Shown: positions 1 through 46,002, counted from the stretch's first letter. The stretch: 64,000 nt of DNA from Pristiophorus japonicus (GCF_044704955.1 NC_091989.1:104346001-104410000); one strand, 5' to 3'. Numbers and translations: made by a program. The notes: generated by a model from the sequence alone, not told the origin.

Positions 1-730
1 AACTTTAATCTACATGTAGTATGGGCAAACCAAACTGGTAGCAATACGGTGGAGAGGGATTTCCTGGAGTGTATTAGGGATGGTTTTGTAGACCAATATG
101 TCGAGGAACCAACAGGATGGCTGGCCATCCTCGACTGGGCAATGTGTAATAAGAAAGGACTAATTAGCAATCTTGTTGTGCGAGGCCCCTTGGGAAGAGT
201 AAACATAATATGGTAGAATTATTTATTAAGATGGAGAGTGACACAGTTAATTCAGAGACAAGGCTCCTGAACTTAAGGAAAGGTAACTTCGATGGTATGC
301 GATGTGAATTGACGAGAATACACTGGTGAATGATACTTAAAGGGTTGACCGATGGATAGGCAATGGCAAACATTTAAAGATCACATGGATGAACTTCAAC
401 AATTGTACAACTCTGTCTGGAGTAAAAACAAAACGGGGATCATGGCTCAACCGTGGCTAACAAGAGAAATTAGGGATAGTGTTAATCGAAGGAAGAGGCA
501 TATAAATTGGCCAGAAAAAGCAACAAACCTGAGGACTAGGAGAAATTAAGAACTCAGCAAAGGAGGACAAAGGGTTTAATTAGGAGGGGAAAAATAGAAT
601 ATGAGAGGAAGCTTGCTGAGAATATAAAAACTGACTGCAAAAGATTCTATAAATATGTGAAGAGAAAAAGTTTAGTGAAGACAAACGCAGTTCCCTTGCA
701 GTCAAAATCAGGTGAATTTATAGTGGGGAA
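1..730 (+). mobile_element. CR1 LINE ORF2 fragment (endonuclease-RT linker), family A, cut by window start
   Basis: Translates to pieces such as WQTFKDHMDELQQLY and QPWLTREIRDSV, matching the CR1 copies at 8345-11415 and 53430-58036. Confidence 0.85.
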
Positions 731-2546
731 GAGTCACTAAAGTAAATGTTGGTCCTTTAGAAGATGAGAAGGGGGATTTAGTAATGGGAAATGTGGAAAT
801 GGCTGAGACCTTAAACAATTATTTTGCTTTGGTCTTCACAGTGAAAGACACAAAAACCATGCCAAAAATTGCTGGTCACGGGAATGTGGGAAGGGAGGAC
901 CTTGAGACAATCACTATCACTAGGGAGGTAGTGCTGGACAGGCTAATGGGACTCAAGGTAGACAAGTCCCCTGGTCCTGATGAAATGCATCCCAGGGTAC
1001 TAAAAGAGATGGCAGAAGTTATAGCAGATGCATTCGTTATAATCTACCAACATTTTCTGGACTCATGGGAGGTACCAGTGGATTGGAAAGCAGCTAATGT
1101 AACACCTCTGTTTAAAAAAGGGTCAGACAAAAGGCAGGTAACTACAGGCCAGTTAGTTTAACATCTGTAGTGGGGAAAATGCTTGAAGCTATCATTAAGG
1201 AAGAAATAGTGGGACATCTAGATAGGAATAGTGCAATCAAGCAGACGCAACATGGATTCATGAAGGGGAAAACAGGTTTAACTAATTTACTGGAATTCGT
1301 TGAGGATATAATGAGCATGGTGGATAGAGGTGTACCGATGGATGTGGTGTATTTAAATTTCCAAAATGCATTCGATAAGGTGCCACACAAAAGGTTACTG
1401 CAGAAGATAAAGGTACGCGGAGTCAGAGGAAATGTATTAGCATGGATCGAAAATTGGCTGGCTAACAGAAAGCAGAGTTAGGATAAATGGGTCCTTTTCA
1501 AGTTGGAAATCGGTGGTTAGTGGTGTGCCACAGGGATCAGTGCTGGGACCACAACTGTTTACAAACCTGGAAGAGGAGACAGAGTGTAGTGTAACAAAAT
1601 TTGCAGATGACACAAAGATTAGTGGGAAAGCGGGTTGTGTAGAGGACACAGAGAGGCTGTAAAGAGATTTAGATAGGTTAAGCGAATGGGCTAAGGTTTG
1701 GCAGATGGAATACAATGTCGGTAAATGTGAGGTCATCCACCTTGTTAAAAAAAACAGTAAAAGGGAATATTATTTGAATGGGGATAAATTACAACACGCT
1801 GCGGTGCAGAGGGACCTGGGGGTCCTTGTGCATGAATCCCAAAAAGTTAGTTTGCAGGTGCAGCAGGTAATCAGGAAGGCAAATGGAATGTTGACCTTCA
1901 TTGCGAGAGGGATGGAGTACAAAAGCAGGGATGTCCTGCTGCAACTGTACAGGGTATTGGTGAGGCTGCACCTGGAGTACTGCATGCAGTTTTGGTCACC
2001 TTACCTAAGGAAGGATATACTAGCCTTGGAGGGGGTACAGAGATGATTCACTAGGCTGATTCCGGAGATGAAGGGGTTACCTTATGATGATAGATTGAGC
2101 AGACTGGGTCTTTACTCGTTGGAGTTCAGATGGATGAGGGGTGATCTTATAGAAACATTTAAAATAATGAAAGGGATAGACAAGATAGAGGCAGAGAGGT
2201 TGTTTTCACTGGTCGGGGAGACCAGAACTAAGGGGCACAGCCTCAAAATATGGGGGAGCCAATTTAAAACCGAGTTGAGAAGGAATTTCTTCTCCCAGAG
2301 GGTTGTGAATCTGTGGAATTCTCTGCCCAAGGAAGCAGTTGAGGCTAGCTCATTGAATGTATTCAAATCATAGATAGATAGATTTTTAACCAATAAGGGA
2401 ATTAAGGTTTATGGGGAGCGGGCGGGTAAGTGGAGCTGAGTCCACGGCCAGATCAGCCATGATCTTGTTGAATGGCGGAGCAGGCTCGAGGGGCTAGATG
2501 GCCTACTCCTGTTCCTAATTCTTATGTTCTTATGTTCTTATGTTCT
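731..2546 (+). mobile_element. 5'-truncated CR1 LINE (RT and 3'UTR), family B
   Basis: RT motifs KSPGPDEMHPRVLKE, QHGFMKGK, KFADDT, LYSLEFR; 3' tail of TTCTTATG repeats ending ~2546. Confidence 0.9.
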
Positions 2547-3291
2547 AATGCAATGAAACCTGGGTGTCATGCTACATCAGTCATTGAAAATTGGCATGCA
2601 GGTACATTAGGCAGTGAAGAAGGCAAATGGCATGTTGGCCTTCATAGCTAGGGGATTTGAGTATAGGAGCAGGGAGGTCTTAATGCAGTTGTACATGGCC
2701 TTGGTGAGGCCTCACCTGGAATATTGTGTTCAGTTTTGGTATCCTAATCTGAGGAAGGACGTTCTTGCTATTGAGGGAGTGCAACGAAGGTTCACCAGAC
2801 TGATTCCCGGGATGCCCGGACTGACATGTGAGGAGAGACTGGATCGATTGGGCCTGTATTCACTGGAGTTCAGAAGAATGAGAGGGGATCTCATCAAAAT
2901 ATATAAAATTCTGACAAGACTGGACAGGTTAGATGCAGGAAGAATGTTCCCGATATTGGGGAAGTCGAGACCCAGGTGTCACAGTCTAAGGATAAGGGAT
3001 GAGCCATTTAGGTCCGAGATGAGGAGAAACTTCTTCACTCAGAGAGTTGTTAACCTCTGGAATTCTCTAGCGCAGAACATTGTTGATGTCAGTTTGTTAG
3101 ATATATTCAAGAGGGAGTTAGATATGGCCCTGATGGCTAATGGGATCAAGGGGTATGGAGAGAAAGCAGGAAAGGGGTACGGAGGTGAATGATCAGGCAT
3201 GATCTTATTGAATGGTGGTGCAGGCTCAAAGGGCCGAATGGCCTACTCCTGCACCTATTTTCTATGTTTCTATGTTTCTATGTTTCTATGT
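2547..3291 (+). mobile_element. CR1 LINE 3' end, family A
   Basis: ORF 2614-3192 (RPHLEYCVQFW...RRNFFTQRVVNLWNSL); (TTTCTATG)n tail at ~3258-3291. Confidence 0.9.
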
Positions 3292-5950
3292 TTACAACCC
3301 TCTGAGAGAAGAAATTTCTCCTGATCTCTGTTTTAAAAGGGTGGCCCCTTATTCTAAGATCATGTCCTCTAGTTCAAGTCTCCCCCATCAGTGAAAACAT
3401 TCTCTGTGCGTCCACCTTGTCAAGCCCCCTCATAATCTTATACATTTTAATAAGATCACCTCTCATTCTTTTGAATTCCAGTGAGTACAGGCCCATCTTA
3501 CTTAAACTTTCCTCATAAGTCAAGCCCCCCATTCCCGGATTCAACCTCGTGAACCTTCTCTGAACTGCCTCCAAAGCAAGTATATCCTTTCATAAATATG
3601 GAAACCAAAACTGCACGCAGTATTCCAGGTGTGGCCTCACCAATACCTTATTTAGCTGTATCAAGATTTCCCTTCTTTTATTCACCATTCCCTTTGCAAT
3701 AAAGGCCAAGATGCCATTGGCCTTCCTGATCACTTGCTATACCTGCATGCTATCCTTTTGCATTTCATGCACAAGTGCCCCCAGCTCCCGCTGTACTGCG
3801 GCACTTTGCAATTTTTCTCCATTTAAATAATAACTTGCTCTTTGATGTTTTTCTGCCAAAGTGCATGACCTCATGCTTTCCAACATTATACCCCATCTGC
3901 CAATGTTTTGCCTACTCACTTAGCCTGTCTGTGTCATTTTGCAGATGTTTTGTGTCCTCCTCACACATTGCTTTTCCTCCCATCATTGTATTGTCAGCAA
4001 ACTTGGCTACATTACACTCAGTCCCTTCTTCTAAGTCGTTAATATAGAATTGTAAATAGTTGGGGTCCCAGCACTGATTGCTACCACACCCCACTAGTTA
4101 CTGATTGCCAACCAGAGAATGAACCATTTATCCTGATTCTCTTTTCTGTTAGTTAGCCAATCCTCTATCCATTGCTAATATATTACCCCAAACCCCGTGA
4201 AATTTTATCTTGTGCAGTAACCTTTTGTGTGGCACCTTGTCAAATGCCTTCTGGAAGTCCAAATACACAACATCCACTGGTTCCCCTTTATCCACCCTGT
4301 TCGTTACTTCCTTGAAGAACTCCAGAAAATTCGTCAAACATGACTTCCCCTTCATAAATCCATTCTGACTCTGCCTGACCAAATTTTGCTTTTCAAAATG
4401 GCCTACTCCTGCTTCTTTAATAATGGACTCCAACATTTTCCCAACCACAGACGTTAGGCTAACTGGTCGACAGTTTCCAGCTTTTTGTCTGCCTCCTTTT
4501 GTAAATAGGAGCATTACATTTGCAGTTTTCCAATCTGCTGGGACATCCCCAGGATCCAGGTAATTTTGATAAATTACAACCAATGCATTCACTATCCCTG
4601 TCGCTACTTCTCTTAAGACCCTAGGATGCAAGCCATCAGGTCCAGGGGATTTGTCTGCCTTTAGTCCTATTATCTTACTGAGTACCACGTCCTTAGTGAT
4701 TGTGATTGTGTTAAGTTCCTCCCCTCTATAGCCCCTTGGCTATCCACTATTGGAATATTGTTAGTATCCTCTACCGTAAAGACTGATACAAAATATTTGT
4801 TCAGAGTTTTCCCATCTCCATGTTCTCCATTACTAATTCCCCGGTCTCATCCTCTAAGAGACCAACATTTACTTTAGCCACTCTTTTGCTTTTTATATAT
4901 CTATAGAAACTCTTGCTATCTGTTTTTATATTTTGTGCTAGTTTACTTTCATAGTCTGTCTTCCCTTTCTTAATCATTTTTTTAATCGTTCTTTGCTGGC
5001 TTTTAAAAGCTTCCCAGTCTTCTGACCTTCCATTAGTTTTGGCCACTTTGTATGCCCTTGTTTTTAATTGGATACTGTCCTTAATTTCCATACTTAGCCA
5101 CAGATAGCTATCCCCTTCCTCTTCACTGGAATATATTTTTCTTCAGAGTTGTGAAATATCTCCTTAAATGTACACCACTGGTCATTAATCGATTTTCCCA
5201 GTCCACTTTACCCAACTCTGCCCTCATACCTCATTAGTCTCCTTTATTTAAGCTTAGTATGCTGGTTAGAGATCAAACTTTCTCACCCTCCATCTGGATT
5301 TGAAATTCAATTATGCTATGATCATTCATTCCGAGGGGTTCCTTTACTAGGTGATTGTTTATTAATCCTGTCTCATTACACAGGACAAGATCTAAGATAG
5401 CCTGCCCCCTGGTTGGTTCCGTTACATACTGTTGAAGGAAACCATCCCTTATGCACCCTATGAACTCCACCTCAAGGCTATCCTGACCAATTTGATTTGT
5501 CCAATCAACATGGAGGTTAAAATCACCCATGATTATTGCTGTTCCTTTTTTACAAGCCCTTACTATCTCCTAGTTTATGCTCCGACCAACAGAGCTGCTA
5601 CTGTTAGGGGACCTATAGACTTCGCCCACCAGTGACTTTTTTCCATTATTGTTGCTTACCTCCACCCAAACTGTTTCAACACCCTTATCATTTGATCCAA
5701 CATCGTCTCTTACTATTGCAGTGATTCCATCCTTTATCAATGTAGCTACCTCACCTCCTTTTCCTTTCTGTCCGCCCTTCCAGATTATCAAGTACCCCTG
5801 AATATTTAATTCCCAGTTCTGGTCACCTTGCAACCACGTCTCTAAAATGACTATCAGATCATACCCATTAGTCTCAATTTGTGCGTCAACTCATCTATTT
5901 TGTTACAAATGCAACGTGCATTTATACAAAGTTCCTTTAAGTTTGTTTTT
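3292..5950 (-). mobile_element. CR1 LINE ORF2 (APE endonuclease and RT), degenerate
   Basis: Minus-strand ORFs with [34 protein letters not shown]. Confidence 0.9.
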
Positions 5951-7444: not shown

Positions 7445-7505
7445 ATGTTGTGGACTGTGAAGTTTCTGTTCCTGTTCCTATCTCTGCCGGGGATCATTTA
7501 CACAG
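7445..7505 (+). CDS. IgSF receptor gene 1 exon 1: signal peptide MLWTVKFLFLFLSLPGIIYT
   Basis: ATG at 7445, hydrophobic 20-mer, phase-1 donor G|gtatct at 7506, in frame with the V exon. Confidence 0.85.
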
Positions 7506-7689
7506 GTATCTATTTATTCTGTACCCAACTGTCCAAATAAAAAAAATCCTAAGTAGTTACCACACCAATTGAATGAAATGTCGTTTGTCCGTCTGTAATC
7601 TTCTTTTTCCTTTGCATTCCCATGTATAAATGTGCTTCTGGATCCGCATAGAATACAATTGACCAAACTTTGAATATGTTTTCTAACAG

Positions 7690-7998
7690 CTTCGATCAGC
7701 GTGTCCCAATCTCCCGAACAAGTAAGTAAATTAAGGGGGACAAACATCACCTTTTACTGCGTAATCCCCCTTTCTCATGACAATTCGGGGGTAGAAGTGC
7801 GTTGGTGGAAACAGGGTGAGAATGAATATGTACAAACAGGAGCCGATAACAGAAAACGAGTCGGTGTCAAAAATAAAGGAGGCGGTTTCTTTGAGTTGCT
7901 GAGCGTAACTATCCAGGACACTGGAATCTATCATTGCGCAGTGATCCGTCAGGGAACAATTATTGGAAATGGAACAGGATCACATCTAACTGTGATCG
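7690..7998 (+). CDS. Gene 1 exon 2: Ig V-set domain with germline-joined J-like strand
   Basis: Acceptor aacag|, 309 nt, phase 1-1; motifs TNITFYC, VRWW, DTGIYHC, GNGTGSHLTVI; donor gtaagt. Confidence 0.93.
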
Positions 7999-8344
7999 GT
8001 AAGTGACCGGAGTGAGCGGGAAGGATCACATGTACCAAATGTAATAAGGATCATGTTTTGTCATTGTTTGATTGCATCCGCTTTGATATTATAAAACGTA
8101 TATTTGTACATTAAGAGTGAAACTTTGCACACAATTGCTAATTATACGGCAAAATATGACATTTAATTTTCTGAGTTGTGTAAAATGACATCAATATTAC
8201 CCAGAGTAATTAACATGCTACTAAAGCAATGTACTGCGGATGTTGAAAATCTGAAATATAAAAAGAAAATGTTGGAAATATTCAGCAGTTCGGGCATCTG
8301 TGGAGAAAGGAACAGTGTTAACGTTTCAAGTATATGACCTGTAG

Positions 8345-11300
8345 CATAGAAACATAGAAAATAGGTGCAGGAGTAGGCCATTCGGCCCTTCTAGCCTGCA
8401 CCGCCATTCAATGAGTTCATGGCTGAACATGCAACTTCAGTACCCCATTCCTGCTTTCACGCCATACCCCTTGATCCCCCTAGTAGTAAGGACTTCATCT
8501 TACTCCTTCTTGAATATATTTAGTGAATTGGTCTCAACAACTTTCTGTGGTAGAGAATTCCACAGGTTCACCACTCTCTGGGTGAAGAAGTTCCTCCTCA
8601 TCTCGGTCCTAAATGGCTTACCCCTTATCCTTAGACTGTAACCCCTGGTTCTGGACTTCCCCAACATTGGGAACATTCTTCCTGCATCTAACTTGTCTGA
8701 ACCCATCAGAATTTTAAACGTTTCTATGAGGTCCCCTCTCATTCTTCTGAACTCCAGTGAATACAAGCCCAGTTGATCCAGTCTTTCTTGATATGTCAGT
8801 CCCGCCATCCCGGGAATCAGTCTGGTGAACCTTCGCTGCACTCCCTCAATAGCAAGAATGTCCTTCCTCAAGTTAGGAGACCAAAACTGTACACAATACT
8901 CCAGGTGTGGCCTCACCAAGGCCCTCTACAACTGTAGCAACACCTCTCTGCCCCTGTACTCAAATCCCCTCGCTATGAAGGCCAACATGCCATTTGCTTT
9001 CTTAACCGCCTGCTGTACCTGCATGCCAACCTTCAACGACTGATGTACCATGACACCCAGGTCTCGTTGCACCTCCCCTTTTCCTAATCTGTCACCATTC
9101 AGATAATAGTCTGTCTCTCTGTTTTTATCACCAAAGTGGATAACCTCACATTTATCCACATTATACTTCATCTGCCATCTATTTGCCCACTCACCTAACC
9201 TATCCAAGTCACTCTGCAGCCTCATAGCATCCTCCTTGCAGCTCACACTGCCACCCAACTTAGTGTCATCCGCAAATTTGGAGATACTACATTTAATCCC
9301 CTCGTCTAAATCATTAATATACAGTGTAAACAGGGGCCCCAGCACAGAACCTTGCGGTACCGCACTAGTCACTGCCTGCCATTCTGAAAAGTACCCATTT
9401 ACTCCTACTCTTTGCTTCCTGTCTGACAACCAGTTCTCAATCCATGTCAGCACACTACCCCCAATCCCATGTGCTTTAACTTTGCACATTAATCTCTTGT
9501 GTGGGACCTTGTCGAAAGCCTTCTGAAAGTCCAAATATACCACACCAACTGGTCCCCCCTTGTCCACTCTACTGGAAACATCCTCAAAAAATTCCAGAAG
9601 ATTTGTCAAGCATGATTTCCCTTTCACAAATCCATGCTGACTTGGACCTATCATGTCACCTCTTTCCAAATGCACTGCTATGACATCCTTAATAATTGAT
9701 TCCATCATTTTACCCACTACTGAGGTCAGGCTGACTGGTCTATAATTCCCTGTTTTCTCTCTACATCCTTTTTTAAAAAGTGGGGTTACATTGGCTACCC
9801 TCCACTCGATAGGAACTGACCCAGAGTCAATGGAATGTTGGAAAATGACTGTCAATGCATCTGCTATTTCCAAGGCCACCTCCTAAAGTACTCTGGGATG
9901 CAGTCCATCAGGCCCTGGGGATTTATCGGCCTTCAATCCCATCAATTTCCCCAACACAATTTCCCGACTAATAAGGATTTCCCTTAGTTCCTCCTCCTTA
10001 CTAAACCCTCTGACCCCTTTTATATCCGGAAGATTGTTTGTGTCCTCCTTAGTGAATACCGAGTCAAAATACTTGTTCAATTGGTCTGCCATTTCTTTGT
10101 TCCCCGTTATGACTTCCCCTGATTCTGACTGCAGGGGATCTACGTTTGTCTTTGCTAACCTTTTTCTCTTTACATATCTATCGAAACTTTTGCAATCCGT
10201 CTTAATGTTCCCTGCAAGCTTCTTCTCGTACTCCATTTTCCCTGCCCTAATCAAACCCTTTGTCCTCCTCTGCTGAGTTCTAAATTTCTCCCAGTCCCCG
10301 GATTCACTGCTATTTCTGGCCAATTTGTATGCCACTTCGTTGGCTTTAATACTGTCCATGATTTCCCTTGATAGCCACGGTTGAGCCACCTTCCCTTTTT
10401 TATTTTTACGCCAGACAGGAATGTACAATTGTTGTAGTTCATCCATGCGGTCTCTAAATGTCTGCCATTGCCCATCCACAGTCAACCCCTTAAGTATCAT
10501 TCGCCAATCTATCCTAGCCAATTCACGCCTCATACCTTCAAAGTTACCCTTATTTAAGTTCTGGACCATGGTCTCTGAATTAACTGTTTCATTTTCCATC
10601 CTAATGCAGAATTCCACCATATTATGGTCACTCTTCCCCAAAGGGCCTCGCACAACGAGATTGCTAATTAATCCTCTCTCATTACACAACACCCAGTCGA
10701 AGATGGCCTACCCCTAGTTGGTTCCTCGACATATTGGTCTAGAAAACCATCCCTTATGCACTCCAGGAAATCTTCCTCCACCGTATTGCTTCCAGTTTGG
10801 TTAGCCCAATCTATGCGCATATTAAAGTCACCCATGATAACTGCTGCACCTTTATTGCATGCACCCCTGATTTCCTATTTGATGCCCTCCCCAACATCAC
10901 TACTACTGTTTGGAAGTCTGTACATAACTCCCACTAACGTTTTTTGCCCTTTGGTGTTCTGCAGCTCTACCCATATAGATTCCACATCATCCAAGCTAAT
11001 GTCCTTCCTAACTATTGCATTAATCTCCTCCTTAACCAGCAATGCTATCCCGCCTCCTTTTCCTTTTATTCTATCCTTCCTGAATGTTGAATACCCCTGG
11101 ATGTTGAGTTCCCAGCCCTGATCATCCTGGAGCCACGTCTCTGTTATCCCAATCACGTCATATTTGTTAACATCTATTTGCACAGTTAATTCATCCACCT
11201 TACTACGGATACTCCTTACATTAAGACACAAAGCCTTCAGACTTGTTTTTTTTAACACCCTTTGTCCATTTAGAATTTTGCTGTACAGTGGCCATTTTTG

Positions 11301-11415
11301 TTCTTTGCCTTGTGTTTCTCTGCCCTCCACTTTTCCTCATCTCCTTTCTGTCTTTTGCTTTTGTCTCCTTTTTGTTTCCCTCTGTCTCCCTGCATTGGTT
11401 CCCATCCCCCTGCAA
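8345..11415 (-). mobile_element. CR1 LINE (near-complete ORF2) in intron 2 of gene 1
   Basis: APE motifs (CLNVRSI, ITETW, SDH) and RT ORF 8926-9879; catagaaa tail; candidate TSD GTAGCAT at 8341-8347 and 11416-11422. Confidence 0.92.
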
Positions 11416-12059
11416 GTAGCATGTTACTGGATTCATCTCAAAAAATATTTCTTTACATCAGACGTCTGGTGATGGAAGTTGCAGAACAAATTCCAAATAT
11501 ATTGATGACTGGCTGAAAATATTTTCTTTTAATGCCCCACTCCAGTCATATACACGATTCTTGCTCCATTTTAGATAATCTGTTTTCCCCGTCGCTGTAA
11601 GTGAGGTTTGACTTTCTCTCTTATGAAATTAATGATAATATACTGACAGGTTGATTCCCGTGACGGACTTCTAATCAGTGTAAATTAACTGTTCATCAAT
11701 GGATTCACTCAAAAAACTGGACCTCGATTGCCGCGTCTTTCACCTCCAATACATAAACCATTTCCAGGGACTGTTGTTGCCGCCTTTTGACACTGAAGAG
11801 AATGTAATTTCGCAAATCGGTTATCATGCTCCGGCTGTGTGAGCTGTCCGACATTCACTTCGCCCCTGCTTTATTATCGGCAATCGACATATAATATTTA
11901 TTTATCTCCTGGGGAGCTGGGGAGACAGACAGACCGAGAGTTAAGAACAAACAGGGAACGACTGAGGATACCATTCATCTCCCATAATTTGTATGTAATA
12001 CACCCCACCCCCCACCGCCCCACCCAGTAATCTGATTTCCCCCATTCTCTGTTCCACAG

Positions 12060-12386
12060 CTGCCCCAACTCCATTGAAGATTGTCTCCAGGACATCCAAG
12101 AGCAATTCATCTGCGTCTCTGTCTCTTGTGTGTGAAACGGCGGAGTTTTACCCGGGCGATTTAACACTCGTTTGGTATAAAAATGGCACTAAAACCGCAA
12201 CTGGGATTAATTCCAATAAACGGAAGAACACTGAGGGACTGTATGAAATGTCCAGCTCTTTGGAAGAGACGCAGCCTGAGCCGAACGGGGCAGTTTACAT
12301 CTGTTTGGTGATTCATACCACCCTCGGGACACCCGTCATTGCCATCCACACTGTTAGCAATTGCGATACACGTACGCGGCCAACAG
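12060..12386 (+). CDS. Gene 1 exon 3: Ig C1-set domain
   Basis: Acceptor ccacag|, 327 nt, phase 1-1; LVCETAEFYPGDLTLVWYKNG...YEMSSSL...YICLVIHTTL (C1 signatures FYP and YxCxVxH); donor gtgagg. Confidence 0.93.
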
Positions 12387-13515
12387 GTGAGGTCAGCTGC
12401 TGTAAATTCTGAAAGGGTATTTTATAAAGTTGTTAGTATTAATAATCATAAAGATAGTTAGGGAAACACCGCCCGGGATATATCAAAGAATAGAAAAAAA
12501 TTATGTTTCAATCTAAAAATATTGACCGAGACTTGTGTAAAACCAGAAGTAATATTATCGCCCTTCACCCAGAAGCTGCTTGCTAAACCTCGACGACTTC
12601 CAAATTGCAAAAAATACATGAGCAGGTTGTGTAGCTCTTCCATCCAATTATTTTACATGTCGTGTTTATTATTAAACATTCAAATGTGTCCTCTTGTTAA
12701 ATCGATTTTATTCTTTCTCATTATCTGGTTTCCTTACATGAGCTGCAGGACCAGAAGCGGCAGTTCTTTTGTCCGCCTCGCGTGTCGGCCAGTGCGGCTC
12801 CTGATCCCGGCCTTTGTTGGGCAATTCACTCTGAATTGGTCAAGAATTAGCCTTGCGGACTGGCCGTAGCGCGAACGCTCCATGATACAGAGATTTGGAG
12901 CGGGAACCCGTTTTATACAATTCATTCCGACTGAGACCCAGATCTGTTTGCACTACAATCGGTTACAAGACGTCAGTTTATTAAAACCTACTTTTCTGTA
13001 AATAACAAATACACGAGTGCGAGTTTCCTTTCCCATTCAGGGACAGTTTTACTTCAGTAAATATATTGCAGAGAATCGCATTTGCATTTTAACCCAATTG
13101 ACACAATCGTCTTTTCCTTCGGCAATGGCGAGTCACGTGTCACTGAATGACCGCAATGTCATCAAACAATAGTTTAATAGCAAAAGAAAAGTCAACCACA
13201 AAAACAAGCCTTTCTGTCCATCGAAAATTATTCATCTGGACTTCTAACTCTCCCAAACCAATGCTCACAACAAATTTAACCGATAATTCCCCCGCAGATT
13301 ATTCAGGCCGAGCATAAATCTTTAAAAGAAGTTCTTTTTGATATCGGACATAAAAAGATAAATTAGGATTATTTTCAAATGCCCCTTTCTCGTGCTATAC
13401 TGCGTAGTTGCTGGAAATATGAGCAGTATTTTAACCAACAAATAATCCTGAGGTCTCTTTTCAGGTAACCACAGCCACAAATTAGAAATCAGTATCTATC
13501 CTTTTAATCTTGCAG

Positions 13516-13626
13516 ATCTTGATGGTAAATATGGTTTCATCTGGAGATCTGGGTGTGCGCTGGGTGGATTGGCCTTTCTGGTGTTCATGATCATCATTGG
13601 GACGAGGTGGCGTTTGAAGAATAAAG
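13516..13626 (+). CDS. Gene 1 exon 4: transmembrane exon DLDGKYGFIWRSGCALGGLAFLVFMIIIGTRWRLKNK
   Basis: Acceptor ttgcag|, 111 nt, phase 1-1, hydrophobic stretch followed by basic stop-transfer residues; donor gtaagt. Confidence 0.88.
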
Positions 13627-14269
13627 GTAAGTATTACGTTAAGCGTTTGATATAATACAAATCTTTAGAGGGATAGCGAGAGCGTCCTGGGCGGCGCAGG
13701 AGGACGATTATTACTTAAAGGTTAAGGTTATATTATGGGATGTCACAGAACAAAAATCATTTGTTGCAAACTGCACTGAATTTTTCATCTTACAATGGAA
13801 GAATAATCACGGAATGAGACAATAACGGATCTGATCATCTGGATATTAAAAGCGGAAATTCTCACTTTGTGGCAGATGATAAGTGAAATCTGATCGATTG
13901 TTTCATCACTTTAAGGCCTGTGACTAGTTTGGGTAAAGTGCTGTCAGTGTCCAGTCACGAGTCGATGTAAGGACTGTTGATGGTTACAGTGATTGGGATT
14001 TGCAACACAGCCCGAAAAATGTGCTATCACAAAATAACTGCGGATGAGGAAAGCGATTTGATCCACCCCGACAAATAGAATCTTTCCCCCAGTGTAGAAT
14101 CCAGCTGTCTGTTAAGAGGTCCCAGGTCGTTTGTCTCATTTGCTGTATGTGGAAATTTGTTCCTCATGTTGATCTCCCTGCGAAGAAAAAATTCCTGATG
14201 TCATGCGTAAAATTCACGTTCACTAGATTTTAGTTCAGGCCTCGCAGTTAAATATCTGGCACTGTACGG

Positions 14270-14670
14270 GTACGGTAGTGTAGTGCTTATGTTACTGAAC
14301 AATAATCCAAAGCTCTAGATTTATAACCCACAGAATGTCGGGAAGGGGGAGACGGGGGCAGGGGGCGACCATGGCATTTTGAGAATTTGGATTCAGTTTT
14401 TAAAATTTGGAAATAGAAAGCTGGTGTCAGGAAAAGACAAGTGATCAGGAAGCTGTCATAAAATGCTACCTAATTCACTAATGTCTTTAGAGACAGAAAT
14501 TTTCCGTCTTTGCCCGGTCTTCACATCAGTTCCACACCAATATAGTTAACATCTAACTGCCCTCTGAAGTAGTCTCGTCGTTCAGTTGTCTAGAAATAAT
14601 GGCATCTAAAGATGGGCAATAAATGCTGCCCTTGTCCGCGACATCTACGTCCTGAGAATGAATGAAACAA
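14270..14670 (+). mobile_element. tRNA-derived SINE nested in an old antisense CR1 remnant (~14000-15170)
   Basis: tRNA-like head (ggtagtgtagtgcttatgttactg) and gaatgaatgaa tail; flanks resemble decayed CR1 3' sequence. Confidence 0.5.
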
Positions 14671-15279
14671 AACTGTGGATTAACTTTTTCTATAAGCTTA
14701 GCTTTCTTATTTGATTCCAAAAGATTATAGCTCAAACGCCTCCTTTCCAGTCTCAAAGTTTATTCAGACTTTCCTCATAACTCAGTCCCCTGACACTGGG
14801 AGACCAGACTGGTGGCTCTTCTCTGCACTGGAGCTAGCGCTTGATCAGTAGTGACCAAAAATTGGTCGCAATGTTCATTGGTCTGTGTGATTAGAGCACT
14901 ATAGAGTTTGATCGTTCCCTCCTGTGACTTTCATTCTACTGCTTTGCCTATGTTGTTCATCAGGCTCTTGGCTTTATCTATTGATGTTCGGCATTGGATA
15001 GGTATGGTTAGCGTCCAATATACTACACTCCTAGATCTCTTTCAGTTACATCTTTAGCCATCTTATTACATGGAATACATGTGCAGTTTAATTTTTCTTC
15101 CTATCTGTAGCGCTCTACTCTTCTTTAAATTGAATTTCAACTGCCATTGCTCTGGCAACTTATATACCTGAAGTCATGTTAAGCTTTACATTGTCTCTAA
15201 AATAGTTTTGAAAGTGCAAACATGGAAACGGAATAAACATTTTAACAATTGAAAGTACTTAAATTCCATTCATTTCCAG

Positions 15280-15323
15280 GTAAACAAGAAAGTATAACAA
15301 TACTAGGCACTCGTGAAGAGCTG
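15280..15323 (+). CDS. Gene 1 exon 5: short cytoplasmic exon GKQESITILGTREEL
   Basis: Acceptor tttccag|, 44 nt, converts phase 1 to phase 0 as exon 6 requires; donor gtaggt. Confidence 0.7.
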
Positions 15324-15844
15324 GTAGGTTCATATCATTTATCCAGGATTAGGGTTCCAATATAAATAAATCTTGTTATGGTGGGGATATTTTATCAAAA
15401 CCTATTTCGCAAAAGTATTTGCCCCACTTTGATGTATCAGTCAAATCGTGTTTTCACACTTGTTGCGAAGCAGGTGTAAGCTATTAAAGAAAGAGAAATA
15501 ATGACATCGGTAGCTTCACTCAACATATAACTAGGTAATAATTATGTGTGCATCCATCTAACCGTTGCTTTTGCAATTTGATATTATATGTCTAAGATGC
15601 TGAAACTACCTATTGTTTCAACATATCTCTAACACTATAATGAAAATCGGCAGGTTGAAATGTAAATTACAATGGACACACTATTTACCGGCCTTAACAT
15701 TCGCAGAACTTTAAATATATTAGCTGTGGTTTCTGCATTTTATTTGCAGCCCAGGTCATTCTGTTTCTTGTTTGATCAGTAGTGTAAATTGGTGAAGGCA
15801 ATGAACAAGCCACATAAAAAACATTTTCTTTCGGGCCCTTGCAG

Positions 15845-15946
15845 GGAGTCAAGGACGACATCGTTGCTTATTCTGCAGTAAATTTGAGCAAAGCCAAGAA
15901 AACGCCAAGACGTAATCATGAAGAGGAGAGGACAACGTACGCTCAG
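15845..15946 (+). CDS. Gene 1 exon 6: cytoplasmic, ITIM VAYSAV and start of ITSM TTYAQ
   Basis: Acceptor ttgcag|, 102 nt, phase 0-0; GVKDDIVAYSAVNLSKAKKTPRRNHEEERTTYAQ. Confidence 0.85.
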
Positions 15947-16136
15947 GTGGGACTGAGAAGTAGATAAGAGAAGAACGCGTGGAGCGCCAACATTAATGTA
16001 AGAGCGGAATATTTGGGGTTGTTCTGACTTTGACCGTGCGTTGTATATAAAACTTTGTGTGTGTTATTCTGACGGCTGCCTTGAACAAACTGATAAAACG
16101 ACCAATCAACAATATTTCCAAACATTGGCATTTCAG

Positions 16137-16304
16137 ATAAAACAAGGGTCAGCCCGGGACAAGATGACCTACGCGACTCTAGAATTGTCTGGCCCCAAGA
16201 AAGCGGGAAAATCTAAAAATAATAAAAGCACAGAATATGCCGAGATACAGACGAAAACCCCAAGTGTAACAGAGGCCGTCTATACTGATACAAGAATGAA
16301 GTAG
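16137..16304 (+). CDS. Gene 1 exon 7: terminal exon with MTYATL and TEYAEI motifs, stop TAG
   Basis: Acceptor tttcag|; IKQGSARDKMTYATLELSGPKKAGKSKNNKSTEYAEIQTKTPSVTEAVYTDTRMK*; joined CDS is 1122 nt (373 aa) with no internal stop. Confidence 0.88.
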   Translation: MKQGSARDKMTYATLELSGPKKAGKSKNNKSTEYAEIQTKTPSVTEAVYTDTRMK

Positions 16305-16390: not shown

Positions 16391-16396
16391 AATAAA
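16391..16396 (+). terminator. Candidate polyadenylation signal of gene 1 (alternative at 16603-16608)
   Basis: AATAAA about 90 nt after the stop codon. Confidence 0.45.
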
Positions 16397-28283: not shown

Positions 28284-31200
28284 TGCCATGTATGTAGATC
28301 ACGTATACTAACTGTATAGTCACATAACGTGTGCCACCAGAGGGCACTGCGGTAGGAGACCTGAGGCTGCCCACCATGCTTGTGCCTCACTCTGGAGTAA
28401 CAATAAATAGGACTAAGGTCAAAACAGCTCAAGTACAATACTAGACCTTGTGGAGTCATTCATAAGAGTATTAAAGACAAAACAACTGGCGATGAGGTTA
28501 TGAACTTTCACACAAAAATCACTAACATTGGTGCATTAGAAAAGTTCTCAGAGGATGAAGATTGGGAAGCCTTTATGGAGTGGCTCAACCAATATTTTGT
28601 AGTAAACGACCTGATAGGCGATGGTCCGGCCAGGCTGGCAGATAAGCGCAGATCCATCCTGTTGACCAGTTGTGGGCCCACAGTCTACGGCCTCGTCAGG
28701 GACTTGCTTGCACCAGAGAAAACAATGACCAAGTCATTAAAGGAGCTGAAAGTACTAATTTGGGACCAAATCAAACTGAAGGAGAGCATCCTCACGGCCA
28801 GGCATCGATTTTCTACACACCGTTGCCCGAGGCCAGGAAATCGCGAAGTATGCTGCCGACCTCAGGAGGCTGGCAGGACACTGTGAATTCGGCGCATCCC
28901 TCATTGATATGTTGTGGGACATCTTTGTAATTGGCATCAGTCATGAGGCCCTTCTTCATAAGCTACTGTCTGCTGAAACAATCGTCACTCTACAGAAGGC
29001 CATCAGCATCAGCCAGGCATTCATGACCTCAAGCTGCAGCTCCAAGCAGATGATGACTTACTCTCAGGACTCAAACCCGGCAAGTACTTTAAATAGAATG
29101 ATGCCTTTCACAGGCAGAACTGTTGAATGTGAATCTGCCCAAGGCAGAGCGTACAGGGTTCCGAGTCCTTTAATGCAGAGTCCCCAATGGGTGCAAACAT
29201 AAGTCAAGTAGCACCATGCTGGCATTGCGGAGGTAATCACAGGGCTCATCAGTGTCAGTTCAGAGACTATGTGTGCAAAGGCTGCAGCACAAAGGGCCAC
29301 CTCCAACGAATGTGCAAAAGAGCTGTGACCCAACACATGGAAGAGGATTCAGCAGATGGCTATGAATCCAGCGCGGATTATGAGGAGATGGCTAGAGAAG
29401 CAGCTCAGTCCCAGGACGAAGTGTATGGAGTATATACCTGCACCATAGATGGTCCTCCAGTGATAATGAAAGTCGAGATAAATGGCATTCCAGACTTCAT
29501 GGAAGTGGACACGGGAACGAGTTAGTCAGTAAAGAGCCAGGAAGCCTTTGAGAGGCTATGGAACGATCAAGCTGAACGACCCAAGCTGGTCCCAGTTCAG
29601 GCAAAGCTGCGCACCTACACCAAGGAACTGATATCAGTTGTTGGTAGTGTGGATGTAAGTGTATCCCATGATGGCGTGGTGCACAATTTACCATTGTGGA
29701 TTGTTTCAGGTGATGGACCAATGCTACTTGGAAGAAGATGGACGGGGAAGATTCATTGGAACTGGGAAGACATCATCCCTCCAGCGATCGACGTCCCCGT
29801 GCTCAGAGGCAAGTCCCCACCTCTGTTGGACAAAGCACCGGAGAGCAGATCCATGCAGTCCTCGAGGCACAGGCCGCTCATGACAACTGCATGGTGATGA
29901 TCAGGCCGAGACGACCCAAATGCACCTTCCCGGTTTCAGTGGCAGGACTCCTGGGGAGACAGATTGGATCCGAGGGCGCCTTCACAGCTTCAGTGTCAGA
30001 ATCCCAGGGAAAGAAGATCGCAGCAGTTGACATCGTGGACACGGAAAAGTTGGTGTCCAAACCACGGGGTGCAGCGCTAATGGAGCAACGACATGTGGTT
30101 CCACGCAAAGAAGACGATTGGGGTAAAAGTAATAAGGCTATTTTAAAGGAAGCCAGCAACCCGCCATTTTTGAATGAACGGCTTGAAATTGGTAACCAAT
30201 GTAAAAGTCCAGCTGTAATGAGCAAAATGTTGTTGAGCGATTTGTCGGGTGCAAATTACAATCAGCCAATGTAACAGGCGAACACCTAATGATTGTATAC
30301 AGGTCCAGCGGGCTACCCAATGCTGTAGCCTGCATCCCCGGGACCAGAACGATGTATCATAAAGTGTGCTCACAGCTGACAGAAGTAGACAAGCCGCAGA
30401 GTAAACGATTCACAGAGAGCAGAGGCACTGGTAGCCTCAGATTGGTTTAACATTGCAGGCACCCGATGGCATAAACCGCCACAAGCTAGAAACAGTAAAC
30501 TGTGCCTATGCTCGCAGTTGGCTATCATCGCCCAACACCCGGGTGGAAAAGGAAGAGCCCACAAACCCACTCGCCACCACAGCAATGCCCAAGATTGAAG
30601 GGTCACCCACAATGGCTCCTCCGAACAGGACCTGAATCAGCCAGGATCCCAAACTAGAGAGTGATCACAACCGTGCCCTCAAGGAAAGCGAGTCAGCAGT
30701 CCCCTGCAAACTGCTAGATAAGACGAGGCAACCCCACCGTCACTTAGACGAAATGCTCACTCACTCAGACCACTTCCCAGGGAGCAGCAGCGACAATATG
30801 CAAATGAAAAACACAGGGATGTCACAGACACATCAGCTGTCTTTGGGCCTACCCGAAACTAGGAGTAATGACAAGAGCCCTGAGCTCCGGCAAGTCGAGC
30901 AAATTGAGCTCACCTCGCCCACAGACCCACTTGCATGGGGCGCCGCCACCAGAAGACCCGGATCTCATCTGGCCATGCTGGAACCAGACTGTGCTTGTGT
31001 ACTTGTACTGATATACCTGTACCGATCATGTAAATGTACCACACAAAAAGAAACGCAACTGTAATCCACCCAACAAATGTACCAAGATGTAAATGTAAAA
31101 CCCATGTGATGAACTTGAATGCAACTTGCATGTAATGGGCCATTAGCATGATCTCTGTGTGGTGGTGGGGGGGGGGGGGCAGGGGGGAGAATGGATTAGT

Positions 31201-32022: not shown

Positions 32023-32077
32023 ATGTCTATGAGACCTGTACTTCTGAGTATAAAGTTCATTGAGATTATTTTCACTG
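32023..32077 (+). pseudogene. IgSF gene 2 exon 1 (leader) MSMRPVLLSIKFIEIIFT
   Basis: Ends IIFT G|gtattt, paralogous to gene 1 IIYT G|gtatct; phase 1. Confidence 0.65.
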
Positions 32078-32170
32078 GTATTTTTTTTAGCTTGTTCTTT
32101 ATCTTTATGTCTCCCTTTCATTCTGAAACTCTCTGTATATAACTATAAAAAATGTTCAGTTTCTTAATAG

Positions 32171-32480
32171 TTGCTGCGGATATACTGTTTGAAGTAACAG
32201 CCCCTGAAAATACCAATTCGATCACTGGTACAAACATTGTCTTTAATTGCACATCATCTATTTTGCAATACAACTCTGATGTGAATATTTATTGGTGGAA
32301 AGTTGGCAAAAAGGAATTGATACAAGCAGACATCAGGAAACGATTTCTTACTGAGAAAGGAAACGCCTCCTTCGAACTCCAGACTATCAACGTCCAGGAC
32401 TCTGGAGTTTATCACTGCGGAGTTACACATCGGGGGAAACAGGTTCGTAAATGAAAATGGATCAAAGCTTGTTGTCACAG
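32171..32480 (+). pseudogene. Gene 2 exon 2: VJ-type V domain with a +1 frameshift
   Basis: GTNIVFNC, IYWW, DSGVYHC; exon is 310 nt against 309 in gene 1; removing one base near 32431-32440 restores HRGNRFVNENGSKLVVT|gtaaga, colinear with gene 1. Confidence 0.85.
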
Positions 32481-32882
32481 GTAAGAACATTGTAAAGAGC
32501 ATATCGGCGTTACAGGGTCAGAGTTATTCAAAATAAATAATGATTTAAATAATGAAGTATCGCATTCCCCACTCTCTCGTGCTTCTTTAACATTTATATT
32601 AGAAATCAAATGGTTCAATTATAGATATTCTCGTTTTAAAACACAATACTTGTAGATCTGTGCGCTGGTTTTGAAACCATCTTAATGGTTTTATTAATCA
32701 TTAGTTCTATAATGTCATGCATGTAAGCTTACGCAGGAAGAATTGTCATGCTATTCAGGTGTGACTACAAATTGTGATAACTTGAAAGGTTTTCAGTATA
32801 AATAACATTTTGATTGGGCTGATTTGAATATATCCTGAACAATTTAAAACAGTAGTTTGATGACCATCTATACTATCAGGCT

Positions 32883-33005
32883 AAGAACAGAAGATCATAA
32901 GAAATAGGAGCATGAATAGGCCATTTGGTCCCTAGAGCCTGCTCCGCCATTCAATAAGATCATGGCTGATCTGATCATGGTCTCAGTTCCCCTTCCCTGC
33001 CCGCT
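32883..33005 (-). mobile_element. CR1 3'UTR stub abutting the broken ERV env
   Basis: cataagaaatagg...gatctgatcatgg CR1 tail, ending abruptly at ~33005. Confidence 0.75.
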
Positions 33006-34297
33006 AGCCTACGATGATCAGCTGTGCCACTACCAGGGCGTGAGAGAGGATGCGGTCCCAGGCTGGGACCTCTACATCCAACCCCCAATCCCACCAGGGC
33101 CTTGAATTTAAGTCAGCTATCTGGGCTCCCAATTTTACTGTTTTTTTGTTGTAGGGTGAAATAATGTTTCTGGGATTTTTGTGCTGCTTTGAACAGATCT
33201 GTCAGGTGCTCTGGTAAAATTGGAATGTGGTATCCGAAATGTGCTGCATAATTGTCCATGCTATTAATCATTGATGCCCCGGTGTTGAAACCGGTAAAAA
33301 CATCATTCCAGATCCCTCTTCTGTGTCTTTTCGGTTTGACGTTGTCTTTGGGTTGTAGACGGTACAGCAAAGTCTTGTTCAAATAGCCAAAATCGAGCTC
33401 GTAGAATGTCCTGAACATTTCTCGAAGGAGAGCCTGGTAGAGGCGTTCTGTCTCTTTTGGGCACCATTCACGAAGGTGCACCTCGGTAAGGTTTCGGATG
33501 ATGGAGGCCACAGTGTAGTGGCCCCCATGGTATAGCAGCTTGTCCGTGGGAACCAAACCAAACCGTACTCTGGTCCCTGGGTGGAGGTAGGGCATCTGTC
33601 CATGTCAGTTGGCTGTGGGCAGGGGCTGTCTGGGGTGTGCGCTTAACTCGGTGGCGTGGATGGAGCTGGGGTGGCTTACTATGCATGCGACCATGCTCCG
33701 GTCCCATCCCATCCCCTCCCCTTCATCCCACCACTGTCAGGAAAACACTATGGAGATGCCTGCCGGGCATATCTTCTCTGATCCCCACATGCACACATAC
33801 ACTCCTAACTCCGCCTCCCACCATTTATCCAAACACACACTCACTCCCCCCTGGGTGTCTGTGATGATCCGGTAGATGCTGTTGTCCAGTCTCTCCTAAT
33901 CTGCTGTCAGGTTTCCCATGTCCTTGCTCAGCTTCCTGAGCCACCATCACCTTCCCACTGGGATGTGCCCCTTACAGGTCAGGCGAACCCTCTTCCCAAC
34001 CACTACCCTAACCCGGGATGCGGTCACCTCAATGCTGGGGCAGGAGACTGATGCTTCCCCATACGTGACCCCGGGGTGGCTGGAGTAGCTAGTGGAATTG
34101 GACCCCAACCACCCTGGCCACCTTCCCCTGTATATGTGGGTATATATTGCGGTCCCCTCTACCCCTGGTGTCCCTTCACCTGTGGTTACAATCGGTGCCT
34201 GCCCCCCTGAGCATCCAAAAATAATGGCTTCTTCAGTCTCTCCCCGGTAGCCTATGCACATTCTGATGTAGGTGCACAGGAGCAGGATTTTCCTCAT
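33006..34297 (-). pseudogene. env: ERV env: signal-like N-terminus, Ig-like domain, RHRVKR and KRHRR furin sites, fusion peptide, internally deleted ectodomain, start of TM
   Basis: MRKILLLC at 34297; ORF 33113-33595 KRHRR|GIWNDVFTGFNTGASMINSMD; frameshifted C-terminus QIADLNSRPWWDW...ILSHALVVAQLIIVG; pyrimidine-rich splice acceptors at ~34441-34467. Confidence 0.75.
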
Positions 34298-39260: not shown

Positions 39261-39299
39261 CGGGCAGAGGTACACGGGTTCCTTGAGTGGGTGTTGGTC

Positions 39300-41106: not shown

Positions 41107-41159
41107 TTTATAATCCTCTCCACCAAGACTGACTGTCTCTACACCCTCAGTCACCGCAC

Positions 41160-41177
41160 GTCCCTTCATGGTCGCCA
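41160..41177 (-). promoter_or_regulatory. Primer binding site, tRNA-Arg(TCG) type
   Basis: TGGCGACCATGAAGGGAC one nt after LTR end; 17/18 match to the recalled vertebrate tRNA-Arg-TCG 3' end GTCCCTTCGTGGTCGCCA. Confidence 0.8.
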
Positions 41178-41178
41178 T

Positions 41179-43320: not shown

Positions 43321-43440
43321 GTAGTGACTGTACCTCGCCCTCGCATTATTTACAGATCACTGGAGGTGCAGGCTTTGCGGTGACATTTATGGTGCTGCTG
43401 ATTATCATTGGAATGTCATTCACATTCAGTAACTGTAAAG
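43321..43440 (+). pseudogene. Gene 2 transmembrane exon GSDCTSPSHYLQITGGAGFAVTFMVLLIIIGMSFTFSNCK
   Basis: Acceptor aatctcgcag| (gene 1: aatcttgcag|), 120 nt, phase 1-1, IIIG shared with gene 1 TM; donor gtaaat. Confidence 0.8.
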
Positions 43441-45888: not shown

Positions 45889-46002
45889 ATTAGTATTGGT
45901 CAACTAATATCCCACGGCCAAAATCCAGGTTGCGGATTATAATTTTTTTTCGACTTTGCCCTCACTGTAATTTGACATTGGCCATATTTGTTGAATCATA
46001 TC

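Follow-up and report, generated by a model that had tools for sequence, protein, structure and literature searches.

A seven-exon V-C1 gene and its broken neighbour

The window, by which we mean the whole 64,000-nt stretch of Pristiophorus japonicus DNA that was analysed, contains on its plus strand a gene of seven exons located exactly where the earlier note had placed them. Exon 1 (7445..7505), with an in-frame stop upstream, holds the start codon and a hydrophobic leader (aa 1–20) which is 80% identical to the leader of the horn shark protein P0049. Exon 2 (7690..7998) encodes a germline VJ-type V-set domain with Cys44-Cys103 and a J-like G strand, and exon 3 (12060..12386) a C1-set domain followed by a stalk cysteine, Cys225. 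A transmembrane helix is predicted in exon 4 (13516..13626) from its sequence and from the helix in the orthologue model, and exon 5 (15280..15323) provides a short cytoplasmic linker, 73% identical to that of P0049. Exon 6 (15845..15946) carries Tyr293 (ITIM consensus, VAYSAV) and Tyr316 (ITSM consensus, completed over the exon 6–7 junction), and exon 7 (16137..16304) carries Tyr330 (ITIM-like), Tyr352 (ITSM consensus), Tyr367 and the stop codon. A candidate polyadenylation signal, AATAAA, lies at 16391..16396, with others at 16603 and 16995. The predicted protein begins with a leader and a V-set domain, continues with a single C1-set domain and a membrane helix, and ends in a tail that bears four conserved tyrosine motifs.

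GT-AG borders flank each of the six introns, whose phases are 1, 1, 1, 1, 0 and 0. The donor sites are GTATCT, GTAAGT, GTGAGG, GTAAGT, GTAGGT and GTGGGA, and each of the six acceptors ends in CAG, with pyrimidines at 11–15 of 18 positions. Predicted splicing joins the exons in frame into 1122 nt, corresponding to 373 amino acids and a stop codon as had been proposed, and P0049 is collinear with the product over all seven exons (61%–80% identity per exon, 68% overall). The horn shark entry XP_067905827.1 is 68% identical to the P. japonicus protein. The gene structure is beyond chance expectation, and reading it as an artefact was dropped as the orthologues are collinear. Contigs of two runs from one study (X1 and X2, kind unrecorded, contigs only) contained no joint at the predicted splice sites and left the C1 exon and exon 6 uncovered, which speaks neither for nor against splicing; a break at 13518 in these contigs is a one-base variant and not a splice.

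We considered whether the gene could instead be silent, or a copy that died recently within a birth-and-death cluster, as the neighbouring family gene is frameshifted and has no detectable C1 exon, and a sister V contig of 90% identity varies evenly by codon position (9, 10 and 10 among the 29 places listed). Against this, none of the seven exons is interrupted, their splice sites are canonical, the core Cys and Trp residues and the four tyrosines are all kept, and the terminal branch of the gene is short in both the V-C1 and the V trees (0.10–0.16). We give the silent-copy explanation very little credence.

A second member of the family, missed in the earlier note, lies broken 16 kb downstream on the same strand. 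Its candidate leader exon (32023..32077) is where tblastn with relatives begins to match, and its V exon (32171..32480, 310 nt) has a one-base frameshift and a stop in the G strand. This V domain belongs to a different subtype and groups in the V tree with the second V of P0018 and with P0088 (96/84). The transmembrane exon (43321..43440) encodes no Arg, and no C1 exon was found from the V exon to the transmembrane exon. No other host genes were recognised in the 64,000-nt window.

Domains, tail and a predicted dimer

Exon 2 matched Pfam V-set above the cut-off (E 7.7e-10) and the V domain was modelled by AlphaFold2 with a pLDDT of 92. The proposal of a J-like strand within the V exon, free of rearrangement signals, stood up: the G-x-G-x-x-x-L-x-V strand is encoded inside exon 2, and a scan of both strands for recombination signal sequences, allowing one heptamer and three nonamer mismatches with spacers of 11–13 and 21–24, returned three weak matches at two places (1529, 17849), none of them at or near the V exon. 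A rearranging Ig/TCR locus, which would have such signals and split V and J segments, was therefore dropped. In the family alignment the G-x-G is kept in 63 and 62 of 66 rows. The F/W of the (F/W)GxG J motif is missing and Asn occupies its place in 47 of 66 rows, while the loop between the F strand and the GxG has a fixed size, counting 9 or 11 residues in 54 rows out of the 66.

The best PDB matches of the V sequence were VNAR and light-chain V domains (E ~1e-4), and among the matches listed identity to solved antigen-receptor V domains did not exceed ~25%. In the PDB the V profile matched mostly multi-Ig adhesion proteins. The best 50 rows of VIA-align (Z 14.4–12.6) included skate VNAR, NCAM, CD79b, PD-1, TCR, CD8 and NKp30, the Foldseek match lists were filled by antibodies, and the fold of the V-C1 model matched Ig light and TCR-like chains. 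Fold searches are without power to separate V-set families.

Exon 3 is a Pfam C1-set domain (E 1.1e-11) and it carries a FYP loop, a Cys-to-Trp spacing of 13 residues and CxVxH, all three of the hallmarks given in PMC2785349. By HMM and tblastn it is the only C1 exon of the gene, confirming that a single C1 follows the V domain, and the relatives are likewise V-C1. The F/W of the J motif and the residue after the B-strand Cys are positions used in Fab-type pairing. The Fab-type C1 face is polar in this family, with a hydrophobic residue after the B-strand Cys in 6%.

These features bear on the idea that a germline-joined Ig light-chain or TCR gene became anchored in the membrane and gained an inhibitory tail, which would make the receptor derived and not ancestral. 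The light-chain-like V-C1 fold and the VNAR and light-chain matches of the V sequence would fit, and PMC2785349 does not exclude such an origin for SIRPs either. The low V identity among the matches listed, the absent J aromatic, the fixed loop and the polar C1 face speak against it, and we regard this origin as very unlikely.

In the helix of exon 4 Gly occupies the column where the likely activating sisters have Arg; an Arg is also present two residues before that column, beside a Trp. The cytoplasmic tail is 111 residues long, and Tyr293, Tyr316, Tyr330 and Tyr352 are kept in 9, 9, 8 and 9 of 9 relatives despite an identity of no more than 7%–73% for the tail exons in the same alignment. 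The strict ITIM consensus is matched by Tyr293 alone; Tyr330 has Met at -2. The tail is likely to be of the inhibitory type. The earlier description as a non-rearranging VJ-C1 membrane receptor with an inhibitory-type tail thus agrees with what the sequence suggests, the likeness to SIRP lying in the tail and in the C1 type.

Dimerisation was modelled, without an alignment, on two copies of P0049 (residues 27–232), a stand-in of 68% identity. The dimer score was 0.44 compared with 0.02 for the best control, with contact agreement between runs of at least 88% and pLDDT of at least 83. The mark used for calling a dimer was reached by 21/30 homodimers and 0/23 monomers of a solved microbial set and by 17/29 homodimers and 0/30 monomers from eukaryotes; it was reached by 7/16 among animal proteins and by 1/7 where there was no older solved relative. 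Solved structures include many C1 dimers, so the pass may reflect memorisation by the model. The predicted interface is formed by C1 strands C, C', F and G and by Cys230-Cys230, with the stalk cysteines adjacent, and of the 17 positions in this interface the P. japonicus protein shares 13. A C1-C1 homodimer is therefore predicted by this model through a face which Fab and TCR pairs leave unused. The stalk cysteine is clear in 3 of 63 relatives as well as in the P. japonicus gene, and rays within the subtype lack it. For SIRP-gamma, PMC3716694 reports that the dimer of the crystals was not found in solution.

Probably paired forms in a cartilaginous-fish family

Homologues at E<=1e-10 amounted to 48 proteins, 47 of which have names, and all of these are chondrichthyan (chimaera, sharks and rays). 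In the V-C1 tree the subtype of the P. japonicus gene comprises 10 of 54 rows, sharks and rays included, with support of 100/99 (6 of 59 chosen relatives were left out, their domains not having been cut by the script), and in the V tree 6 of 43 rows with support of 99/99. To judge from these sequences, the subtype predates the shark-ray split. The deep V tree of 31 chondrichthyan and 12 bony-vertebrate rows, chosen from 166 for which a quick tree only was made, gave no resolved placement and neither refuted nor demonstrated a single clade for the family (p-AU 0.46); no mammalian SIRP sequence was among the rows of the V trees.

A division of the family into likely activating and likely inhibitory receptors had been missed in the earlier note. 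Two or more YxxL/I/V motifs were present in 1 of 11 rows with a membrane Arg versus 42 of 65 rows without (Fisher p 7e-4, the rows not being independent). This count started from 84 rows, of which 8 with no detectable helix were dropped to leave 76; it includes several isoforms or near copies and a false helix call in P0001, scores P0018, with its shifted Arg, as non-Arg, and may take some incomplete gene models for short tails. The P. japonicus gene's own subtype holds both kinds, Arg with a short tail in P0014 and P0016 and Gly with a long tail in P0049, P0008, P0009 and P0012, and in the short-tailed sisters the Arg sits towards the helix's outer end. The family splits into Arg/short-tail and neutral/long-tail forms, and it looks like a paired system of likely activating and likely inhibitory receptors.

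The suggestion of an undescribed family held in part. Our literature search, whose scope did not extend to the PRARP, VJC1 and shark NCR3 papers, found no paper on it, and no SIRP or NCR3 match occurred in one supplementary file from the elephant shark genome study, whose main supplementary text is possibly separate. RefSeq, however, contains predictions for dozens of members already, with names assigned automatically (SIRP-, tapasin- and IgL-like), and the V-C1 architecture as such is already known. The family is easy to overlook because databases label its members SIRP, tapasin, CD276, B7-H6 or Ig light chain.

Relationship to known VJ receptors and proposed action

Taken together, we consider it probable that this is an intact germline V(J)-C1 type I receptor gene of an ancient paired cartilaginous-fish family, likely inhibitory and likely acting in the manner of SIRP-alpha. 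SIRP-alpha and SIRP-beta1 (PDB 2WNG; PMC2785349) share with it a J-like V domain followed by a true C1-set domain, the absence of rearrangement, the four-tyrosine inhibitory tail and the existence of inhibitory and activating forms. In the family-profile comparison with solved sequences SIRP-alpha ranked fourth (E 1.8e-31) and with C1 alone second. SIRP clusters headed the ESM feature search at 0.96, tied with unnamed V-C1 clusters, and the ESM Atlas yielded nothing beyond generic V-set, SIRP and unnamed V-C1 clusters.

The gene might accordingly be a true shark SIRP with one C1 in place of two, binding a shark CD47, and many of the automatic RefSeq names are SIRP-like. SIRPs have three Ig domains, V-C1-C1, whereas the P. 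japonicus gene has a single C1. No SIRP V was among the best 50 structural or best 60 profile matches listed, the reedfish SIRP-like V falls apart from the family in a V tree of low resolution, and the family V is not detectably nearer to SIRP than it is to other V domains. SIRP-beta1 pairs with DAP12 through a membrane Lys, where the likely activating sisters here carry Arg. We regard a true SIRP as rather unlikely.

A shark NCR3 (NKp30) family was reportedly published by Kinlein et al. in 2021. Membership in it could be argued from the VJ-type V with its G-N-G-T strand, from the membrane Arg of the sisters, and from a structural match to NKp30 (Z 12.8, rmsd 2.7, 101 aligned, 24% identity). 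NKp30, however, has one Ig domain, as PMC6514059 states, and a membrane Arg with no signalling tail, whereas the P. japonicus gene adds a C1 domain and has Gly and the long inhibitory tail. Published NCR3 is on chr19 in white shark (last listed gene 115.6 Mb) and chr34 in sawfish (19.8 Mb), while the members of the present family are on sequences of 193.5 Mb and 54.0 Mb, respectively, a comparison made on relatives by sequence length only and assuming the same assemblies. UrIg2 is described in PMC12227049 (PDB 9DMX) as V-C1-C2-C3, IgG-like and located in the MHC or an antigen-receptor complex. It shares elasmobranch origin and a non-rearranging VJ plus C1 with the P. japonicus protein, which differs as a two-domain membrane receptor with one C1 and a signalling tail; white shark UrIg2 is on chr27, away from the 193.5-Mb sequence if chromosome numbers are size-ordered. 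As relatives in two species lie off the NCR3-bearing MHC chromosomes, the gene is probably neither NKp30 nor UrIg, and both identities were dropped on architecture and chromosome, NCR3 membership being highly improbable. MHC synteny, which the earlier note had suggested as a check, was thus not borne out for these relatives, and comparing chromosome lengths with the supplementary data of PMC11406177 gave no match.

PRARP (Fu et al. 2019, PMID 30770416) is said to be a non-rearranging VJ-C1 membrane protein with an ITIM/ITSM tail that forms disulfide dimers, and the tetrapod VJ-C1 genes (Ohta et al. 2019) reportedly have the same non-rearranging membrane layout. That the gene is a shark orthologue of these, and so a relative of the non-rearranging antigen-receptor precursor, is possible if doubtful; it would fit with the inhibitory mechanism, the difference being one of descent. 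In favour are the germline VJ exon followed by C1, the membrane anchor, the ITIM/ITSM tail, perhaps the disulfide-linked dimers reported for PRARP, the second rank of UrIg2 in the family-profile comparison and the likeness of the V-C1 model to Ig light and TCR-like chains. The layout is also that ascribed to such genes in two reviews (PMC10751288, PMC11599192). Homologue searches returned no identified PRARP sequence, and a V-profile search (322–2000 aa) gave eight matches, none named NCR3 or PRARP. On the other side, the nearest named bony-vertebrate V matches (11 of 20 hand-picked from 147) were from kiwi, turtle, squamate, lungfish, bichir, reedfish and goby, and of the eight inspected none is a V-C1-TM protein of this type. 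The J aromatic is absent, white shark and sawfish have their relatives away from the MHC chromosome, and the large paired cartilaginous-fish family and four tail tyrosines are further differences.

Returning to the inhibitory receptor that we favour, a SIRP-alpha-like action through recruitment of SHP-1/2 is by analogy the most likely. The V domain would bind a ligand on a cell surface, which is probably a marker of self. The four tyrosines of the tail, which form two ITIM-ITSM pairs, would then be phosphorylated by Src-family kinases, and SHP-1 or SHP-2 would dock on the phosphorylated tail and damp the leukocyte. In SIRP-alpha four ITIM tyrosines recruit SHP-1/2, according to PMC13503985. 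Sisters with a similar ectodomain and a membrane Arg may signal through FcR-gamma or CD3-zeta, the partners named for such an Arg in PMC6514059. The subtype is predicted to homodimerise by the C1 C-F-G face and not by Fab-like V-V and C-C pairing, and the stalk cysteine could lock this dimer.

The proposed relevance to the origin of antigen receptors was not established: the V domain is at most ~25% identical to any solved antigen-receptor V, the J F/W is missing, the relatives are off the MHC and the V tree gives no resolution, leaving the antigen-receptor-ancestor reading unproven. Intact VJ genes of a single exon are looked for as kin of the gene into which the RAG transposon inserted, as set out in PMC12227049. 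PMC2785349 noted that no SIRP gene was then known in animals older than adaptive immunity. A joint reading, in which an expanded and hitherto undescribed paired VJ-C1 family predates the chimaera-shark split, is distinct from SIRP, NKp30, PRARP and UrIg, dimerises by the C1 C-F-G face and reflects a stage before Fab/TCR pairing and before RAG, is in our view improbable. The dozens of family sequences could test a two-domain ancestor common to SIRP, PRARP and antigen receptors. To our knowledge the NK and myeloid receptors of sharks are poorly known, and the family is a candidate missing-self or don't-eat-me system in these animals.

Gene structure, predicted signalling tail and paired forms

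The seven exons described for the main gene (window 7445-16304, + strand) by the earlier note were confirmed exactly where it had placed them, joined across six GT-AG introns of phases 1,1,1,1,0,0 into a spliced frame of 373 residues which ends in the stop codon TAG. Pfam searches identified exon 2 (7690-7998) as a V-set domain and exon 3 as a C1-set domain. The J-like G strand was located inside exon 2 and, in agreement with the claimed lack of a recombination signal (RSS), an RSS scan gave no match near the V exon. The C1 domain fits the three C1-set hallmarks in the available text of PMC2785349 (FYP, a Cys-to-Trp spacing of 13 residues, and CxVxH). As the introns are packed with LINE-type reverse-transcriptase fragments, a plain ORF list contains only pieces of the gene, which explains why the ORF track had shown fragments only. 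Numerous such fragments, which we take to be CR1-like, were observed at window 8345-11470, 700-5900, 54600-58000 and 62675-63313, and a near-full LINE copy sits in intron 2. As far as expression is concerned, this copy is a predicted gene.

The tail of the window protein contains an ITIM consensus at Tyr293, ITSM consensus motifs at Tyr316 and Tyr352 and an ITIM-like motif at Tyr330. Tyr293, Tyr316 and Tyr352 were each conserved in 9/9 relatives tested and Tyr330 in 8/9, with tail identities of 7-73%. The SIRP-alpha tail likewise has four such tyrosines, which dock SHP-1/2 (PMC13503985, available text). The window protein is most likely an inhibitory receptor working like SIRP-alpha: its V domain would bind ligand, the tail would then be phosphorylated and SHP-1/2 recruited. 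The anatomy of the protein and the pairing count given below are observations; ligand, cell type and phosphatase binding are predictions.

Among 84 family rows (aligned sequences), 8 were dropped from the pairing count as the helix was not detectable. In the others, short tails went with an Arg located close to the outer end of the helix: two or more YxxL/I/V motifs were present in 1/11 Arg rows vs 42/65 rows lacking Arg. These counts draw on non-independent rows and include some incomplete models. The membrane Arg of NKp30 and NKp46 pairs with CD3-zeta/FcR-gamma (PMC6514059, available text). The window gene has Gly at this column, and its own subtype contains both Arg/short forms (homologues P0014, P0016) and Gly/long forms (P0049, P0008, P0009, P0012), as would be expected for paired receptors. 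The Arg-bearing sisters would be activating and counterbalance the inhibitory window receptor. The interpretation in the earlier note was supported in part.

Relatives and comparison with known families

A profile search that scored 7998 candidates identified 48 proteins at E<=1e-10. Of these, 47 were named; they came from elephant shark, horn shark, sevengill shark, catsharks, smooth-hound, bamboo and zebra sharks, sawfish, skate, stingrays and devil rays, and carried automatic labels only (e.g. SIRP-, tapasin-, CD276-, B7-H6- or IgL-like). Within a species, the contigs with family members were all of one length, which suggests clusters. The closest full-length match was P0049 (horn shark XP_067905827.1), a protein of 374 aa with 68% identity overall and 61-80% in the individual exons. 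A V-C1 tree built from 54 rows placed the window protein in a 10-row clade (support 100/99), outside a horn-shark/catshark/bamboo-shark subclade; since this clade holds both sharks and rays, the subtype is older than the shark-ray split.

PRARP/VJ-C1 genes reportedly have architectural features which the window gene shares, a resemblance of layout that makes it at most a putative orthologue. As to the possibly undescribed family of the earlier note, the literature searched gave no description of this shark family; the texts or supplements of Kinlein 2021, Fu 2019 and Ohta 2019 may already cover it. Searches of the accessible supplements of PMC3964593 and PMC11406177 were empty. Known joined-VJ proteins include CD79, NITR, SIRP, CD8, NKp30 and PRARP (PMC11599192, available text), and tetrapods are known to have several VJ-C1 genes (PMC10751288, available text). 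A V tree with bony-vertebrate VJ proteins did not resolve the deep branches, so a link to the origin of antigen receptors is no more than a possibility. The V-C1 layout and four-tyrosine tail agree with the proposed SIRP-like or VJ-C1 receptor. The gene does not fit SIRP as defined, given the single C1 domain and Arg rather than Lys in the sisters. The window gene was also found to belong neither to UrIg nor to the rearranging receptors.

NCR3 was rejected on account of C1 domain, tail and chromosome. The accessible supplement of PMC10751288 assigns NCR3 to the MHC chromosome in both white shark (last gene at 115.6 Mb) and sawfish (19.8 Mb). The family members are on sequences of other sizes (193.5 Mb in white shark, 54.0 Mb in sawfish), so the family is distinct from the NCR3 cluster linked to the MHC, assuming the same assemblies. 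In white shark, chr27 carries UrIg2 and the antigen-receptor complex (PMC12227049, available text).

Used alone as a query against 1.84 billion representatives, the V domain gave 147 matches at E<=0.001, of which 20 were hand-picked and named (8 chondrichthyan, 11 bony vertebrate, 1 annelid). The V-C1-TM layout was not found in any of 8 bony-vertebrate proteins inspected. Seven kiwi, turtle and squamate proteins (P0168, P0163, P0098, P0060, P0101, P0177, P0143), auto-named pIgR-, titin-, obscurin- or otk-like, combine ITIM-like tails with VJ-type domains, of which each has one to several. A single clade (97/97) united 8 V domains contributed by 5 of these proteins and may represent another unnamed receptor family. 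Near-identical V domains were observed in P0054/P0011, P0090/P0105, P0116/P0115 and P0139/P0042, one partner having C1 and the other lacking it, which suggests putative isoforms skipping the C1 exon in several species.

Domain models and a predicted C1-C1 dimer

The window V was modelled as a confident V-set fold (pLDDT 92), in which the Cys-Cys span is short at 59 residues. No close relative was found among solved structures (identity <=25%), and VNAR, NCAM, CD79b, TCR, PD-1, CD8 and NKp30 were all within 2 Z units as fold matches. The J aromatic packs V against V in Ig/TCR; this position is Asn in 47/66 family rows.

The P0049 model comprised leader, V, C1, a single helix and a disordered tail. 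Two-copy prediction of its ectodomain scored 0.44 vs 0.02 for the best control, with contact agreement of at least 88% and pLDDT of at least 83. The mark set for this score was reached by 21/30 microbial homodimers and 0/23 monomers, and by 17/29 eukaryotic homodimers (7/16 animal; 1/7 without an older solved relative) and 0/30 monomers. The predicted interface is C1-C1, formed by strands C, C', F and G, and the two stalk cysteines are adjacent; the window protein has the same residue at 13/17 of the interface positions. The A-B-E face of constant domains is the pairing face in Fab and TCR; in this family that face, opposite the predicted interface, is polar. These models support but do not show a C1-C1 dimer for the window subtype. 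The score may reflect solved C1 dimers that the predictor has memorised, a clear stalk Cys is present in only 3/63 relatives, and a SIRP-gamma crystal dimer was absent in solution (PMC3716694, available text). We consider it unlikely that this is a separate ancient VJ-C1 family whose back-face C1 dimer predates Fab-type pairing.

A second family gene and a sister V contig

A second, broken family gene of another subtype is present downstream on the same strand (window 32023-43440, +), with a candidate leader starting at 32023, a V exon (32171-32480) and a membrane exon (43321-43440), which is neutral and includes a stalk Cys. The V exon has a one-base frameshift, which may be either a genuine lesion or an error in the assembly. 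No C1 exon was detected between the V and membrane exons. Its V grouped with a different shark-and-ray subtype (96/84). Between the V and membrane exons is a broken retrovirus-like element (~33100-41300, - strand) with a gag zinc knuckle, reverse transcriptase, two RNase H-type domains, integrase and an env-like frame that matched nothing in Pfam; an LTR pair was looked for and not found.

In X1, a sequencing run of unrecorded kind, record 1 is a 910-base contig which matches only the V exon (window 7691-7994, 90%), with match edges at the exon edges. The 29 listed differences were spread 9/10/10 over codon positions 1/2/3, and the contig may represent a sister copy that is diversifying or dead. 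The second gene and this 90%-identical sister V fit a birth-and-death cluster. Two related broken LTR-retrotransposon copies were also observed at window ~28400-29900 (+) and 46000-50200 (-), the second with integrase domains, as was a G/C-rich low-complexity repeat tract (44434-45400) inside a retroelement remnant.
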